The notes under the pieces were generated by a model. The model did not search any database and was not told the DNA's origin. It was given only the letters and a program-made list of their open reading frames with translations. The position numbers and the translations under genes were made by a program. Positions 56,726 to 63,642 of a stretch of 64,000 bases of DNA are shown here, one piece after another. Positions within the stretch are counted from its first letter, which is position 1. The number at the start of each line of letters is the position of its first letter. Source of the stretch: Eubacteriales bacterium (GTDB taxonomy: Bacteria > Bacillota > Clostridia > Oscillospirales > CAG-382). The DNA lies in NCBI GenBank assembly GCA_050953105.1, contig JBMNMA010000001.1, positions 401,983 through 465,982 on the forward strand, read 5' to 3'.

Positions 56726-56895
56726 TGCCCACCGTAATAGTTTCGATTGTTGTTATAGCCGTAATCGGGGTTGCTTTGTATTATACAATTAAAAACCGCA
56801 AAAAAGGCGCCTGCGCCTACTGCAGCTCCTGCTGCTCTACCTGCGGCGGCTGCTCCACCGAAGACGGCCAAAACAAAGCTGACGAAAGCAAATAA
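56725..56895 (+). CDS. FeoB-associated Cys-rich small membrane protein (56 aa; absent from the ORF track)
   Basis: ATG overlaps the feoB stop (TAATG). The translation is MPTVIVSIVVIAVIGVALYYTIKNRKKGACAYCSSCCSTCGGCSTEDGQNKADESK, that is one TM plus a CxxCxxCCxxCxxC tail. A terminator follows. Confidence 0.75.
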   Translation: MPTVIVSIVVIAVIGVALYYTIKNRKKGACAYCSSCCSTCGGCSTEDGQNKADESK

Positions 56896-56935: not shown

Positions 56936-56974
56936 AAAAAAACAACCGGCCGTTTATGCGGCCGGTTGTTTTTG
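56936..56974. terminator. Bidirectional terminator (feo operon / oxidoreductase gene)
   Basis: aaaaaaacaaccggccg-tttatg-cggccggttgttttt, a long perfect stem. Confidence 0.9.
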
Positions 56975-56988
56975 TATATTCGTCTTTT

Positions 56989-58530
56989 TTATTTCTTTTC
57001 GTGGTAGGATTTTTCGGTGTTAACGTTCCAGATTTCGGCTTTTCCCTTTCCCTCCCGGACGGCGTCCACGGCAAACATGGCGGTTAACATGGAATGGTCC
57101 ATATTGTTATAGCGGTGCTGGCCGTTGCGGCCTATACAGTAAAGGTTTTCAAAGGTGTTAAGGTATTCCTTAACTTTGTCAAACTGTTCATAGGTGCCGA
57201 AATAGGAGGGGTAGGCCTTCTTTATCTTTACCCTTACCGAATCTATAATGTCCTCTTTGTCCACAATGCCTATATGAACAAGCTCGTTTTTGGCAAGTTC
57301 TATAAAGTCCTTGTCGGACATGTTCCACATTTCGTCCCCTTCGGTGCAGAAATACTCAAGGCCAATCCACACCGTGTTGTCGGGGTCAGCCACCATATAG
57401 GGGGACCAGTTGTTGAAAATCTGCAACCTGCCCAGCTTTACATCCCGTTCCTGAATGTAAATCCAGCAGTCGGGGACTATGTTCCCAAGAGTTTTCATTT
57501 TGGTCTGGTTTTTAATTTTCAGCTTATTGCACAGCAGACCGACGGTTATAAAGTCCCTGTAGGGGAGATTGTGGGCGATTTCCTTAACGTCCTGCGGCAC
57601 GGTTGCCATACCGTCAACCAAATCCTTAACCGGCATTGAGGAGAAGAAATAGTCGCCGTAGAAGGTTTTATCCCCGGCTTTAACCGCCTTAACGGTGTCG
57701 TTTTCGGTTATAATTTCGGTAACGGGGCAGTTCATTATAATTTCGCCCCCCAGTTTTTTAACCTCTTCCGCCAGTTCCTCCCAAAGCTGGCCGGGGCCTT
57801 TTTTGGGATACATAAACTGTTCGATAAGGGAGGTTTCAACCTTTGAGGAGTTTTTCCGCCTGAAGGGCTTTGAAATAATATTCCACACCGCCTTGAACAA
57901 CGATAACCCTTTAACCCGCTGGGCGCCCCATTCGGCGGATATGTTTTCGGGATTTACCCCCCACACCTTTTCGGTGTAGTCTTCAAAAAACATTTCGTAA
58001 AGGGGTTTTCCGAACCGGTTAATGTAAAAATTGCGCAGGTTGGTTTCTTTCTTTTTAAACACCGCCGACCACACATAGCCGAACCCCGCCTTTATGGTGC
58101 GGACAAAGCCCATGTTCTTAATGGTTTCGGCCGACAAGGTAATGGGGTAGGCAAAGAACTTTTTAAGGAAATAAATCCTTGACACCCTTGTGCGGACAAG
58201 CATAACCCTTTCTTCAGTCTCAGGATCGGGGCCGCCCTCGGCAAGGGGCTTTTCCCTTCCAAGCACTTTATCGTCGTAGGCAGGCTTGCCCTGGAGGGGC
58301 ATAAGGTTCTTCCAGAACTCATTTACCCGGTCGTCCTTGGAAAAGAAGCGATGTCCCCCTATATCCATACGGTTGCCTTTATATACCACCGTCTGGGAGA
58401 TGCCGCCTATAACGTCGGTGGCCTCCAGCACTATAACCTTAATGTCGGTGGTTTTAAGCAGCTCGTAGGCTGCGGTAAGACCTGCCGGTCCTGCTCCTAT
58501 AATTATTGCCGTTTTGTTTGTGTCCTTCAT
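56989..58530 (-). CDS. FAD/NAD(P)-binding oxidoreductase (amine-oxidase/UGM-like fold)
   Basis: N-terminal dinucleotide motif [20 protein letters not shown]...GG, and GGHRFF. 513 aa. Confidence 0.75.
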
Positions 58531-58539
58531 TTTAAACCT

Positions 58540-60582
58540 CTATTTGAATAATTTTGCGAAAAACTCATAAAGTCCGGGTGCCATCTTATATATGTTATCC
58601 GCCTCGTTGGCAAAGATAAGCGCCGATGCCACAAGGAAGGATATTATAAACATAACAACCGCCGTTTTGTAGGCAAGGTTTGCCAAAGGACTGCCCTCCT
58701 CGCCCCTTGTGGGCAGTTCAAGGAAAACCAACGCCCCCACCAGACTAAGCGGGAACATAATGTCCCCCATATACCTTATATGGCTGCCGGCAAGGCAGAA
58801 GTCGGCAAAGGCAACAAAGACGCCCATAATAATAGCGATAAGATATGTAAACCGTTTTACCCTATCTCCCTTTGACACCGAAATGCTGCCCAACCCACCC
58901 CAGGCTAACGGGAAGTTGATAACACCTGCTGTGCCGAAAATATAAACATAATTGCGGTAAACGCCTAAATTTACCGACGCAATGTCTAAAAAGGGGAAAT
59001 TCGGTGTAAAGGCAACCGGCTGGAGGAAGTAATGATACATTGCCGGGAAAAATTTATAAAGCTGAAGCTTGAAATACCCCATATCCGCAAAGGTAAGCTG
59101 ATAGGTGGCGCCGAAATCAAAGGGCGAAGAAAACCTTGCGGCGTTAAACCACATAATCGCCCCTGCCCCAAGTGCAACAGGGGTGGCAATAAAGGCAAAA
59201 TCAATTAGCTTTGAAGAAACTCTCCGTCCCCGCTTAAAGAAGAACTTAATGTAAAGGGGAACAAGCATAACAGCGTAAAGGAGTATATTAGGCCTTGAGG
59301 CCACCGTCAGCACGGCGGAAACGCCTGCAAGGGCAAGAAAAACCCTCCGGTGGACAGGACTTTGTGCCAGAGCCGCTTCAAAGGAAAAATACAAAAACAG
59401 CGCAAAGAAGGTTATGCCCGAAATTATGGCTATATAATACATAGCCGGGTGGACATTCAGCACATATATCAAAGACGAGGCGCAAAGGGAAGGTATGGCA
59501 AGGAGTAAAGTCAATAAATAGGGCTTTATTTTAAAATACTCCAGGGCTTTCAGTAAAGCTAAAACTATTGCAAAGGTGGCCGCAATGGTAAAAAACAGGC
59601 TTGCGGTGCCGTCCTTTGGCATATAGCCGGTTGTGTAATAGGTGGGAAGATAAAACAGCACCACCGGCGCCACGCCGAAATAGGAGTAAATTTTTCCTTT
59701 ATAGTAAGCTCTGTCCCATAAATAGGAGGTGCCGCCTAAAAGATCCCGTCTTAAAAAGTAGTCGTAGGGGTTTTCAAGGTTGGCGTAGGCTTCCTCGTCA
59801 AAGGGAATATCAAGGTTAAGCTGCCCTTTTATAAAGGCGTCGGCCTGCTGCTGGTAGCAGGTATAGCCATTAATGTCCCCGGTAAAGGGATATTCGTCAA
59901 AGCCCATGTCCTTGACGCAGCCGATAAACGCCGAAACAAGGCATAACGATGCCACAATCCATACAAAGGCCACATGGCCTTGTTTTTGCTTGTCATAAAC
60001 GATTTTATACCATTTCCGGTAGACAATCAGCCAGACAAGGCAGGTTAATATACAGCACAGCACAAACCTGAAAATATTAAAGGAAAACACTCCTGTGCTG
60101 TTTATTGTTATGCTTTTTATAGACAGATTGCTGGAATTGGAGTTAAATTCAATGGTTATCTCTTTCGCCTTGCCTAAAGAGTCAATGGGGATAATATTAA
60201 CCCCGTCTTCGTCAGGCCGGATGTTATGCTTGCCCGTCGTCCGGTTGACAGCCGAGGAGTTCTGGTCCTTTATATAGGTGGTTATGTCTAAATATGAATA
60301 TACCCCGTAGCATTCAATGCCGAGATTTACAACCTCCTCATCGTCAATTTGGATTATAATGCTGCCAGAATTTTTTATGTATAGCTCGTTCCCCTGAAGG
60401 GCAATATTTGAGGAGGTGTCAACTTCGGTCAAATCAATGGTATAGGTGTTATATCCTCCCGCCTTTACGGCAATAAACGCCCGGTTGGAAATGCAAATTT
60501 CCAACACAAACAGTAAAGCAAAGGCAAGGATAAAAAAGATGGTACTTTTTTTGTCAAAAAATTTCTTTTTGGTGTTTTCCAT
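58540..60582 (-). CDS. Large polytopic membrane protein with a roughly 150-aa extracytoplasmic N-terminal domain; possible GT-C-type glycosyltransferase
   Basis: 680 aa, at least 12 predicted TM. The loop after the TM2 region is rich in D/E/Y (FDEEAYANLENPYDY..WDRAYYKGKIYSYFG). Function is inferred from context only. Confidence 0.4.
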   Translation of the reverse strand: MENTKKKFFDKKSTIFFILAFALLFVLEICISNRAFIAVKAGGYNTYTIDLTEVDTSSNIALQGNELYIKNSGSIIIQIDDEEVVNLGIECYGVYSYLDITTYIKDQNSSAVNRTTGKHNIRPDEDGVNIIPIDSLGKAKEITIEFNSNSSNLSIKSITINSTGVFSFNIFRFVLCCILTCLVWLIVYRKWYKIVYDKQKQGHVAFVWIVASLCLVSAFIGCVKDMGFDEYPFTGDINGYTCYQQQADAFIKGQLNLDIPFDEEAYANLENPYDYFLRRDLLGGTSYLWDRAYYKGKIYSYFGVAPVVLFYLPTYYTTGYMPKDGTASLFFTIAATFAIVLALLKALEYFKIKPYLLTLLLAIPSLCASSLIYVLNVHPAMYYIAIISGITFFALFLYFSFEAALAQSPVHRRVFLALAGVSAVLTVASRPNILLYAVMLVPLYIKFFFKRGRRVSSKLIDFAFIATPVALGAGAIMWFNAARFSSPFDFGATYQLTFADMGYFKLQLYKFFPAMYHYFLQPVAFTPNFPFLDIASVNLGVYRNYVYIFGTAGVINFPLAWGGLGSISVSKGDRVKRFTYLIAIIMGVFVAFADFCLAGSHIRYMGDIMFPLSLVGALVFLELPTRGEEGSPLANLAYKTAVVMFIISFLVASALIFANEADNIYKMAPGLYEFFAKLFK

Positions 60583-60609
60583 TTAATTTGCTGTCCTTTT
60601 ATGCAAACC

Positions 60610-62133
60610 TCAGTTTGCGGCATAGTTGGATATAAAGTATAGCAGCGACGACACAACGCAAAAGGCCACCGATGCCGCCACCATACCCTTCTTTATATAC
60701 GCAACAGCCCTGCTTTTAGTTTCACGGGAAATAAACATTCCCAAAAAAGCCGCCCCGATAACCACCGTGGGAACAATATAACGGAAATCCATGGTGCAGT
60801 CGTGGGCATGGGTAAAGCAAAAATTAACATAGGTTATCATTATGGTTAAATAAAAAACGTAAAGGGTAGCCTTTATTGCCTTAGGAACACCCTCATACTT
60901 TTTGAAAAGGGCGTAAATCATGGCAAAAAGGACTAAGGCCACGATGAGTATGTTTAATACAAACAATGCGTATGCCAGTATTTCGGTTATCCAAAGGCCT
61001 TCCCCCATATGCCATTCCCCGAAAACCGAGGTTTTAAGTATTGCTCCGGGAATGTTGTATTCGTGAAAGGCGTTGCCGAATTTTTCTCCCCGGGCAAAGT
61101 AGATTCCTTCCGATATCGAGGGGAAAATATCGAAAAACCTTTGAAAAACTGTTCTGAATCCCACATACTGGTCGTGGTTTTTGCCAAGCTGCATTACATA
61201 GCCGAAGGGAGCGTCGAATTTTTCATGCAGACGCACCGACCACCACAGTCCAGCAGGAATACAGATTGTTCCGAAAACCGCAAACTGACCGATAAGCTTT
61301 AATTTTCTATCGGAAAGCGCTAACATTATTAAAAACACCATTGCCGTAGCCGGAGCAGCATAGGCCGCCGACAGCTTGGACATCATGCCAAAGCCTATTC
61401 CGTAAGCTATCATGACTATATTAAACAGCGTGGGCTTTTTCCACCACCTTATAAGGAAGAGGAGGGCGAAAAGGGTTAAGGTTACCGCAAGACAGTCGTT
61501 GTTGTAGCTTGCGGACAAAATAATAAAGGTGGGGTGGAAAGCCACAAGGGCATAGCTTATAGTAGCGGCGGTTTTGTTAAAGTTTAGCTCTTTAAATATC
61601 TTATAGGCGATAAGACCGGCTGAGGCCGAATAAAACAACGTTAAGGTGGTAACATAATGGATTGCGGTGTCAAAGGCCACACCGAGAGTGGTTAAGGCTT
61701 TAAGCCATAAAGCCTCAAATATATAATGAAGGGGCGGGTGGTAATACTGGCCGGAAAGAGAGTCGGGAAAGGCTTTATTGGTAAAAAGCCGGGTTATATA
61801 GCCCGAATGGGAATAGCTTTCCGGGCGGAAAGCGCCGACGTCGTGCTGCCTGTCCCAAAGTCCGGTGTATATTACATAGGCAAGTTTTATCAAAAAGGAA
61901 AAGGCGGTTATTAAGAACACAATCCGTCCTTCGGTAAGACCGCCTTTAAACTTCCAAAAAATTCCGAGGGCAATTAAAAAAACAAAAAATACAAAAAAAG
62001 ACGCAATAAAAAAGGGGGTATAACCGTCAGCCTTATAGTCAAAAACCAAAGCCGACAGCAAACAAGCACCGAACAGCAGCAAAAACGGGTGTTTTGCGAT
62101 ACGATTGTAAACACATTTGAAAGTAGATTCCAT
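60610..62133 (-). CDS. ArnT/PMT-like (GT39/GT83, GT-C fold) polyprenyl-phosphate-sugar dependent glycosyltransferase
   Basis: Polytopic. The first periplasmic loop is YTGLWDRQHDVGAF...HSGYI and is followed by YYHPPLHY, both typical of the PMT_2/ArnT family. Confidence 0.65.
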   Translation of the reverse strand: MESTFKCVYNRIAKHPFLLLFGACLLSALVFDYKADGYTPFFIASFFVFFVFLIALGIFWKFKGGLTEGRIVFLITAFSFLIKLAYVIYTGLWDRQHDVGAFRPESYSHSGYITRLFTNKAFPDSLSGQYYHPPLHYIFEALWLKALTTLGVAFDTAIHYVTTLTLFYSASAGLIAYKIFKELNFNKTAATISYALVAFHPTFIILSASYNNDCLAVTLTLFALLFLIRWWKKPTLFNIVMIAYGIGFGMMSKLSAAYAAPATAMVFLIMLALSDRKLKLIGQFAVFGTICIPAGLWWSVRLHEKFDAPFGYVMQLGKNHDQYVGFRTVFQRFFDIFPSISEGIYFARGEKFGNAFHEYNIPGAILKTSVFGEWHMGEGLWITEILAYALFVLNILIVALVLFAMIYALFKKYEGVPKAIKATLYVFYLTIMITYVNFCFTHAHDCTMDFRYIVPTVVIGAAFLGMFISRETKSRAVAYIKKGMVAASVAFCVVSSLLYFISNYAAN

Positions 62134-62262
62134 AATGTTCCCCCTTACGGGAGTATTGTAGCATAAGAAACCACCACTGTCAACAACAGGGGTGATTTTA
62201 CAATAAGCGGTTGAAATGAAAGGATATTTATGCTATAATTTTTTATATTTTTCGAAAGGTTT

Positions 62263-63585
62263 ATGTGTATGAGGAAAATTTCGTTTGTTCTTGTAGTCCT
62301 AATGGCCTTTTCACTTTTTGCCTGCGCCGGCAGTAACGGCGACAATTCCTTACCCGATGAATCCCTGACACCGTCGGATGTCCAATCCAGCGAAACATCC
62401 TATGACGAGGGCAAAATCGCCGACCTTATTGCTAAATATTCCCATCTTGGATCAGCCACCGAGAAATGTGTTGTTCTTGAAAGCAAAACGGTTGCCGACG
62501 GCAGAGCGATAATTTCCGGCTACTGCGAAGAAGGCAGCGATATATATCTTGCCGAAGGCGGAAACGTAACCCAGGTGATAAAAAGCCACAAGGGAACATA
62601 CATAATCGAAATTAATTTCGCAAAGGGCGAAAAGCGCAAAGAGCTTGAAATTTACGCAAAAACCGAGGGCAAAGGAGTATCTGAGCCGGTTTCGGCCACT
62701 CTTAGGTATTCTGCGTCGGCAGAGGGCGAATTTCAGCATTATGTACGGGTGGGAAAGGAAGGCTGGCTGTTTTTCACCAACACCGAACCCCAGTATACAA
62801 ACAACGAGCATCTTGCCGAAAACCGTAAAAACCGCATAACAAGCCGTATACGCGACCGGGTGTCCACTTTGGCCGAAATCGGCACGAAAATTATATATGT
62901 CTTTATCCCAAACCCCAATGAGGTTTATTCCGAATATATGCCTGATGAAGTTGAAAAAGGCAGCGTTATTTTGCGTGAAGAAGTGGCAAAGGCCCTTTCC
63001 GACGCCGGCGCAACAGTTATTGACATGGGTGAAACATTAAAAGGCCTAAAAGGCGGGGAATTTGAAGTTTATCACCGCACCGATTCCCACTGGACCGAAT
63101 ACGCCGCCTACTTTGCCTATAAAGCATTATGCGACAAGTTTGTTTCCGACGGATTTACGGGAGCAGCGCCAAGGGATATTTCTGAATTTAACTTTACAAA
63201 CGAATTCCGGGCCGCCGGTGACCTTTATTTCGACCTGGGCCTTGACGAATACGAATTTAAGGTTTATTCCACCTTTTCTGATATTTCCTTTGACGCTCCG
63301 GTTAACCTGCCCAAATATGCAGCAAATGACCGCAGCCGGATAAACGACGACTGTATGAAGGAAATGACGTTTCATAATGCGAATGGCAGCAACAAACCGT
63401 CATTTATTATGATGCGGGACAGCTATTCCATAATGCTTTTTGACTGGCTTGCCGAAAGAGCAAGTGATTCCTACTTCAAAAAGCTGTGGGATTTTGATTT
63501 TGATATAAACGAAATAACCACCCTTGGTGTGGATTATATCATTTACTTCGTTACCGACCTTAATCTGAACAACGTGTTAAAATAG
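62263..63585 (+). CDS. Lipoprotein, AlgX/AlgJ-like SGNH (DHHW-family) putative glycan O-acyltransferase/esterase
   Basis: Lipobox SLFACAGS. YHRTDSHWTEYAAYFAY (D-x-H-W) and MMRDSYS (Ser block). Paralog of 1109..2533. Confidence 0.7.
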   Translation: MCMRKISFVLVVLMAFSLFACAGSNGDNSLPDESLTPSDVQSSETSYDEGKIADLIAKYSHLGSATEKCVVLESKTVADGRAIISGYCEEGSDIYLAEGGNVTQVIKSHKGTYIIEINFAKGEKRKELEIYAKTEGKGVSEPVSATLRYSASAEGEFQHYVRVGKEGWLFFTNTEPQYTNNEHLAENRKNRITSRIRDRVSTLAEIGTKIIYVFIPNPNEVYSEYMPDEVEKGSVILREEVAKALSDAGATVIDMGETLKGLKGGEFEVYHRTDSHWTEYAAYFAYKALCDKFVSDGFTGAAPRDISEFNFTNEFRAAGDLYFDLGLDEYEFKVYSTFSDISFDAPVNLPKYAANDRSRINDDCMKEMTFHNANGSNKPSFIMMRDSYSIMLFDWLAERASDSYFKKLWDFDFDINEITTLGVDYIIYFVTDLNLNNVLK

Positions 63586-63615
63586 CAATAATTGTCATTT
63601 GTCTTCAAACATAAG

Positions 63616-63642
63616 AAAAAGCCCGCAAATGCGGGCTTTTTT
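63616..63642. terminator. Bidirectional terminator
   Basis: aaaaagcccgc-aaat-gcgggctttttt. Confidence 0.9.

Follow-up and report, generated by a model that had tools for sequence, protein, structure and literature searches.

A clostridial operon encoding a UDP-galactopyranose mutase-like flavoenzyme and two GT-C membrane proteins is probably part of a split surface furanosylation pathway

Mammals lack furanose sugars, which are antigenic. To our knowledge, known galactofuranosylation in bacteria is cytoplasmic and uses UDP-galactofuranose (UDP-Galf). Three-component systems for glycosylation outside the membrane (GtrA/GtrB/Gtr*, CsbB/GtcA/YfhO and GacI/GacL) have been reviewed (PMC8035078). 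Three-component systems for pentofuranoses obtain the furanose from phosphoribosyl pyrophosphate (PRPP) via a UbiA-type synthase (Kelly et al. 2024, PMC11127046), and the words "FAD" and "mutase" do not occur in the text of that paper. A commentary mentioned extra FAD oxidoreductases and epimerases in the pentofuranose systems of Bacillus (PMC11194591). A GT-C core joined to a lectin-like domain is known from the Emb and AftD proteins (PMC3044687 for EmbC). Here we analyzed a stretch of 64,000 nucleotides from the gut-type clostridial genome of Eubacteriales bacterium GCA_050953105.1, called the window (C1:401983-465982; C1, C4, C7 and C9 are contigs of this genome). It contains an operon of three genes for a 513-aa flavoenzyme, a 680-aa membrane protein (M680) and a 507-aa membrane protein (GTC507). 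The operon is probably the isomerising and extracytoplasmic-transfer part of a split, multi-component pathway for surface glycosylation (furanosylation). The locus is a tightly organised instance of a widespread, uncharacterised module on the theme of the three-component extracytoplasmic systems.

The flavoenzyme is encoded by the last gene of the operon (56989-58530, minus strand; positions without a contig name are those of the window). It was a full-length member of NCBIfam PRK07208.1-2 (NF005546), with 812.5 bits over residues 4-513 and a cut-off of 418. This family carries no functional name ("hypothetical protein"). At least 8000 homologues were found, many of them about 70% identical, and they are labelled only "NAD(P)/FAD-dependent oxidoreductase". 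A first-pass annotation, made by reading the window alone, had called the protein an FAD Rossmann oxidoreductase. The motifs were present in the sequence, with GxGxxG at residues 12-17 and a GGHRFF motif. The PDB matches were all UDP-galactopyranose mutases (UGMs), at 3.6e-16 in a single-sequence phmmer search and at 4e-22 with a profile of 24 sequences. Among 14 control genomes, Caulobacter vibrioides, which is genetically tractable, was the sole carrier of PRK07208.1-2 above the cut-off.

The structure of the flavoenzyme was modeled using AlphaFold 2 (pLDDT 86). No membrane segment was predicted, and a low-confidence stretch of the model (residues 207-235) coincided with the region of the mobile flap of UGMs. 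When the model was submitted to Foldseek, the top 33 matches were UGMs with TM-scores of 0.72-0.82. The best one was the Trypanosoma cruzi UGM (4dsg; TM-score 0.75/0.82, E 9e-29). Protoporphyrinogen oxidases trailed the UGMs by about six orders of magnitude.

Active-site residues of the Aspergillus fumigatus UGM were located in the flavoenzyme by profile alignment. G62 and H63 of the fungal His-loop corresponded to G59 and H60, and F66 to F63. The four ligands of the UDP diphosphate, R182, R327, Y419 and Y453, corresponded to R205, R368, Y440 and Y474, respectively. The other equivalents were Y128 (Y104 in A. fumigatus), F181 (F158), Y185 (Y162), W190 (W167), W356 (W315), Y358 (Y317) and R468 (R447). 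Except for F63 and F181, all mapped residues were invariant in 24 homologues. Judged by sequence and model, the flavoenzyme is an uncharacterised relative of the eukaryote-type (fungal and trypanosomal) UGM, and its fold and residues suggest that it works like a UDP-galactopyranose mutase.

M680 is encoded by the middle gene (58540-60582, minus strand). It matched no Pfam or NCBIfam family model, and a PDB sequence search gave no useful relative for either M680 or GTC507. In the AlphaFold 2 model of M680 (pLDDT 92), a transmembrane helix with its N-terminus inside was followed by an external β-sandwich at about residues 45-165 and then by a helical core. The β-rich extracytoplasmic domain that had been proposed for the N-terminus was thus seen in the model, directly after the first transmembrane helix. 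This sandwich matched CBM6/32 modules in Foldseek. The core matched AglB, ArnT, EmbA/B, PglB, STT3, ALG3/12, Pmt4 and AftB with a Foldseek probability of 1.0. The TM-scores against solved GT-C structures were only 0.32-0.37 because of the extra domain. Profile-profile comparison using hhalign linked the core to the GTC507 family (93% probability, E 3.4e-7). The first external loop, between helices 201-220 and 304-318, contained the conserved motif ENPYDY..R..WD.AYY.GK.Y.YFG at residues 270-303. Within this loop D290 was invariant and D274 nearly so; they are candidate equivalents of the catalytic Asp residues of solved enzymes.

GTC507 is encoded by the first gene (60610-62133, minus strand). 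This PMT_2-type (ArnT/PMT-like) protein passed the Pfam PMT_2 model with 40.4 bits (cut-off 26.1), and the genome search agreed. In its first loop, R95, D98 and H109 were invariant. Both polytopic proteins had been described as GT-C-like. Because GTC507 passed PMT_2 and M680 was linked to GT-C enzymes by Foldseek and to the GTC507 family by its profile, both are GT-C proteins by fold with predicted transferase activity. Across species-representative genomes, at least 527 stretches encoded a relative of M680, and most of them belonged to Ruminococcus, Oscillospiraceae, Lachnospiraceae and unnamed Eubacteriales.

From the coordinates of the open reading frames (ORFs), the gaps were 9 nt between the flavoenzyme and M680 genes and 27 nt between the M680 and GTC507 genes. 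To see how constant this arrangement was, neighbours of M680 homologues were counted in the best 80 of at least 527 loci. In 17 of the 80 loci the flavoenzyme gene directly adjoined the M680 homologue, with both on one strand; it lay upstream in 10 and downstream in 7. It was by far the top recurrent neighbour, and none of the others exceeded 10 loci. GtrA came next (7/80), and the remaining neighbours were housekeeping genes. The GTC507 family adjoined an M680 homologue only in L001, L002 and L078 (L-numbers label the loci compared). GtrA-flavoenzyme-GT-C triads were present on metagenomic contigs (L083-85, L092, and L089-91, which also contained a short-chain dehydrogenase/reductase, SDR). 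In L083 and L089, the GT-C at the end of the triad was 35-39% identical to GTC507 over the full length. The pairing of flavoenzyme and GT-C that had been noticed in the window is therefore real and conserved, as judged from the adjacency and the recurring triads.

Of 300 genomes sampled evenly across the class, 18 (6%), from 17 genera, encoded the flavoenzyme. Fifteen loci were fetched with their flanks, and all 15 had GtrA, a GtrB-like GT2 and/or a GT-C beside or near the flavoenzyme gene. GtrA was found at 7 loci and a GtrB-like GT2 within 8 kb at 6. The GT-Cs belonged to the GTC507 family (4 loci), other PMT_2 proteins (3), GtrII (1) and the M680 family (1-2). The flavoenzyme was present in 7 of 10 genomes with the GTC507 family and in 4 of 9 genomes with the M680 family, compared with 6% overall; these genome counts are descriptive, as related genomes are not independent. 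In one member of the class (L114, 4067-9615), the flavoenzyme gene was followed by genes for a GtrB-like GT2, an MBOAT and a 495-aa protein with a single transmembrane helix, an order that would link a mutase-like enzyme to an O-acylation pair.

The whole genome (2.2 Mb, 99% complete) was searched for partner proteins. All matches to GT2, GtrA and MBOAT lay outside the window, and their reported absence from it thus held. The cluster had also been called an orphan. This did not hold beyond the window, since GtrA, a GtrB-type GT2, a GT2-GtrA fusion and three MBOATs (C4:321615, C7:66120 and C1:67413) are encoded elsewhere. The standalone GtrA (C9:420127-420606) was 41-46% identical to the GtrAs adjoining the flavoenzyme in other genomes. 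A GtrB/CsbB-type GT2 with two C-terminal transmembrane helices was located at C9:509760-510776. At C9:90687-93233 (L082), the gene for a 356-aa GT2 fused to a GtrA domain stands immediately before that of a large, GT-C-like membrane protein, which matched PMT_2 weakly and has an open frame of 700 aa. This pair is a second, self-contained glycosylation module. Two YfhO-type GT-Cs and galE were also present. The genome search found no UbiA-type synthase, and no UDP-glucose dehydrogenase (Ugd) scored above the cut-off in the genome. A pentofuranose route from PRPP was rejected for this genome, as both enzymes were missing. With the PRPP/UbiA route and the route from UDP-GlcA to UDP-Xyl/Ara unavailable, UDP-Gal or UDP-GalNAc is the most plausible substrate.

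From the folds, conserved residues and gene linkage that were observed, we infer every catalytic step as follows. The cytoplasmic flavoenzyme would contract the ring of a nucleotide-activated pyranose to a furanose. Its substrate would most likely be UDP-Gal (or UDP-GalNAc) made by GalE. A GT2 encoded elsewhere, for which the proteins at C9:509760-510776 and the GT2-GtrA fusion at C9:90687 are candidates, would load the furanose on undecaprenyl phosphate. The unlinked GtrA (C9:420127-420606) would flip the lipid-linked sugar. The two GT-Cs would then transfer the furanosyl residues to an external acceptor, and the jelly-roll domain of M680 would hold the acceptor glycan, as in Emb and AftD. 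As there are two transferases, they may form two different linkages, or one may prime and the other extend. Judged by gene content, galactofuranose (Galf) is the leading candidate for the sugar, because galE is present and Ugd, a UbiA-type synthase and canonical Glf are absent. The operon points to an undescribed route in which furanoses are attached to the cell surface by enzymes acting outside the membrane. In our literature search, with most subscription journals outside it, no paper was found on PRK07208, a lipid-linked galactofuranose donor, GT-C galactofuranosyltransferases or this system.

Several results weigh against this pathway. The flavoenzyme scored 38.5 bits with the curated UGM model TIGR00031 (cut-off 303.75), and Pfam GLF (PF03275) matched neither the flavoenzyme nor any other protein of the genome. 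Thr residues replaced Q107 and N163 of the A. fumigatus UGM. Past the His-loop, about 28 residues (79-112) form a conserved insert that UGMs do not have. About half of the genomes with the M680 family had no flavoenzyme; the dependence of the M680-type transferase on it is therefore not universal. The GT2 and GtrA proteins cannot be firmly assigned to the operon, as competing GT-Cs are present, two of YfhO type and one with its own GT2-GtrA fusion. An assignment of the unlinked GtrA and GtrB by elimination failed for this reason. The main caveat is canonical Glf (PF03275), which was found in 45 of the 300 class genomes and in a third (6/18) of those that carry the flavoenzyme. This coexistence argues against simple redundancy with the UDP-Galp mutase and for a different substrate, and it suggests that the flavoenzyme uses a substrate other than plain UDP-Galp. 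Replacement of the flavoenzyme by Glf was considered for the three genomes of the GTC507 family without the flavoenzyme, all of which had Glf, yet Glf is a trait of the whole genus there. The idea was rejected because the two were not mutually exclusive (both in 6/18 genomes).

The same coexistence, which implies a non-redundant substrate, would fit a flavoenzyme that acts at the lipid level. It would isomerise polyprenyl-phosphate-galactopyranose to the furanose, or move the sugar from UDP directly onto polyprenyl phosphate through a flavin-sugar adduct of the UGM type. This direct transfer would replace the usual GT2 loading enzyme, and the flavoenzyme gene was found far more steadily beside GtrA and GT-C genes than beside a GT2, with a GtrB-like GT2 within 8 kb at only 6 of 15 loci and at none of L083-92. 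The invariant, family-specific insert next to the His-loop would also suit such a reaction. We consider it unlikely, as both Arg and both Tyr residues that hold the UDP diphosphate were invariant, as were the uridine-stacking aromatic residues, and the flavoenzyme had no predicted membrane segment. The literature search found no paper on either reaction, and neither is known to us. It is similarly doubtful that PRK07208-type flavoenzymes are not ordinary UDP-Galp mutases but the committed enzymes of an undescribed route to a polyprenyl-phosphate-linked furanose donor, by lipid-level contraction or flavin-mediated transfer. If they were, many bacteria would have an extracytoplasmic hexofuranosylation analogous to the mycobacterial arabinosylation that depends on decaprenyl-phosphoryl arabinose (DPA).

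Two kinds of chemistry had been offered in the first-pass annotation, UGM-like ring contraction and DprE1-like oxidation. The ring contraction was backed by sequence, fold and active-site residues, and the oxidation was not. As a DprE1-like oxidase, the flavoenzyme would convert a lipid-linked sugar to a keto intermediate, a reductase would give the epimer, and the GT-Cs would transfer it. The locus order in Mycobacterium tuberculosis is Rv3789-dprE1-dprE2-aftA, and the order GtrA-FAD enzyme-GT-C(-SDR) in L089-91 mirrors it. The FAD oxidoreductases and epimerases of the Bacillus pentofuranose systems (PMC11194591) would be in line with this chemistry as well. We regard it as very improbable for this operon. 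The fold of the flavoenzyme is of the UGM/amine-oxidase type and not of the VAO/PCMH type, its structural neighbours are UGMs, and the Pfam search gave no match to FAD_binding_4 or ALO. There was no SDR in the operon or at most other loci, and the genome had no UbiA-type phosphoribose synthase. Least probable of all is that the three genes are chance neighbours, with the flavoenzyme serving cytoplasmic glycan synthesis and the GT-Cs using ordinary lipid-linked pyranose donors. The M680-family genomes that lack the flavoenzyme, about half, would fit such an arrangement, and so would those flavoenzyme genes, such as that of L086, that have no glycosylation partner immediately beside them. Against it stand the 9- and 27-nt gaps, the single promoter and single terminator, the adjacency in both gene orders across many genera and the strong enrichment at genome level. 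The split furanosylation pathway with contraction of a nucleotide-activated sugar is thus the reading that we prefer.

The divergent neighbour of the operon encodes a 440-aa AlgX/AlgJ-like SGNH lipoprotein (62263-63585, plus strand). It matched Pfam ALGX (PF16822) with 73.6 bits (cut-off 26.5; 2.8e-20) and AlgJ (4o8v) at 5.6e-5. A lipobox (LFAC) and the motifs DSHW and RDSY were present, in agreement with the intact D-x-H-W and Ser motifs of an SGNH-like lipoprotein noted before. Four AlgX-like paralogs were scattered on C1, each standing alone. The other three are located at 1109-2533 of the window (plus strand), C1:348682-349770 and C1:134006-135076. All four share one layout, in which the lipobox is followed by an Ig-like domain (conserved motif G(T/Y)CEEG) and then by the ALGX domain. 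The triad of the paralog at 1109-2533 is degenerate (DNHL for DSHW and RDDF for RDSY), and the one at C1:348682 has a long linker of SEEPS/KEPS repeats. No MBOAT partner adjoined any of the four genes. Among about 110 loci, the AlgX-like gene adjoined the module only in L001, the nearest relative, and, weakly, in L056. The four genes are therefore not conserved together, and the lipoprotein is probably a neighbour and not a conserved component of the module.

All four ORFs were recovered at the positions and with the spacing first described. The 129-bp region between the divergent genes contained two sigma-70-like promoters, one on each strand, each with 11 of 12 consensus positions. The site for the three-gene operon (62155-62183, minus strand) read TTGACA-17-TACAAT with an extended TG, and the site for the AlgX-like gene (62211-62239, plus strand) read TTGAAA-17-TATAAT; both are promoter-like by consensus match only. 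The locus had been described as bracketed by bidirectional terminators, and two such hairpins were found, both GC-rich with T-runs on either side. One (about 56947-56976; caaaaaaacaaccggccg-ttta-tgcggccggttgtttttg by reading) lies between the feoB/small Cys-rich ORF and the operon end; a simple scan for hairpins had not listed it. The other (63615-63642), with a 12-bp stem and T-runs on both strands, lies between the AlgX-like gene and tpiA. Housekeeping genes flank the locus: feoB with the small Cys-rich ORF lies beyond the first hairpin, and tpiA beyond the second. The locus had looked accessory. Base composition did not bear this out, as the GC content was 0.41-0.49 (0.467 for the contig), with no foreign mark.

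Three other observations were made on the way. The small ORF beside feoB (56726-56895, plus strand) has 56 codons and overlaps the feoB stop; it encodes one transmembrane helix and a Cys cluster, as in Cys-rich peptides of the FeoB-associated type. The standalone gtrA gene shares 8 nt with the end of the gene for a 374-aa SGNH esterase of the GxDLY/GDSL type (C9:419010-420606; L081, 330-1926), and lepA is next. This overlap suggests that the esterase and the flippase are translationally coupled. At C1:497287-502943, a fragmented GT2 was found near two other proteins, one radical-SAM/SPASM-like and one of 228 aa with a long Cys-Glu-Thr repeat (CETCETCET...). Tail-fibre-like proteins are encoded beside these two, so that the region is possibly a prophage or a region of the type for ribosomally synthesized and post-translationally modified peptides.

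If a lipid-linked furanose donor does feed external GT-Cs, the synthesis of cell-surface glycans would gain a new branch. The flavoenzyme family is very large and carries no functional name. The M680 family has no model, yet it occurs in hundreds of species of rumen and gut Clostridia. One characterised member would annotate thousands of genes. Characterisation could also account for glycans on the surface of Ruminococcus, Oscillospiraceae and Lachnospiraceae.

Each part of the locus resembles a described system and departs from it. The flavoenzyme shares with eukaryote-type UGMs (A. fumigatus 3ute/3uka/3ukh and T. cruzi 4dsg) the three-domain fold (TM-score 0.72-0.82), GxGxxG, the GGH His-loop and equivalents of R182, R327, Y419, Y453, R447, W315 and Y317. 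It differs from them in being only about 20% identical, in falling below the TIGR00031 and Pfam GLF thresholds, and in the Thr residues at Q107/N163 and the insert of about 28 residues past the His-loop. It is also encoded with GtrA and GT-C genes, whereas UGM is encoded with cytoplasmic galactofuranosyltransferases. The lipoprotein is like the alginate O-acetyltransferases AlgX/AlgJ and DHHW proteins in its ALGX/AlgJ match, D-x-H-W and the serine motif (R)DS(Y). Unlike them, it has no adjacent MBOAT, has an extra N-terminal Ig-like domain, and has scattered paralogs, four in all.

The GT-Cs of the operon, and the GtrA and GtrB-type GT2 (two C-terminal transmembrane helices) elsewhere in the genome, recall the Gtr-type three-component systems, and in other Clostridia GtrA and GT2 share an operon with the flavoenzyme. 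A difference is the fourth part, the mutase-like flavoenzyme, which is the most constant member. Another is that the loading and flipping genes are unlinked here and two different GT-Cs stand in one operon. These two features, together with the absence of any Pfam or NCBIfam model for one of the GT-C families, are what is distinctive at this locus.

Like Emb and AftD, M680 joins a GT-C core and a lectin-like domain. The proposed pathway has further features in common with the pentofuranose systems and with mycobacterial DPA arabinosylation (Rv3789-DprE1-DprE2-AftA/Emb), where a furanose on polyprenyl phosphate is delivered to external GT-Cs. In them, a lectin-like jelly-roll is likewise carried on the GT-C (EmbC, PMC3044687; EmbA/B in our Foldseek search), and several GT-Cs act in series. 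The UbiA-type synthase of both systems is absent from this genome. DprE1, the FAD enzyme of the DPA pathway, has another fold (VAO/PCMH), and this operon contains no SDR. Here the furanose would arise by ring contraction of the mutase type, and the sugar would be a hexofuranose.

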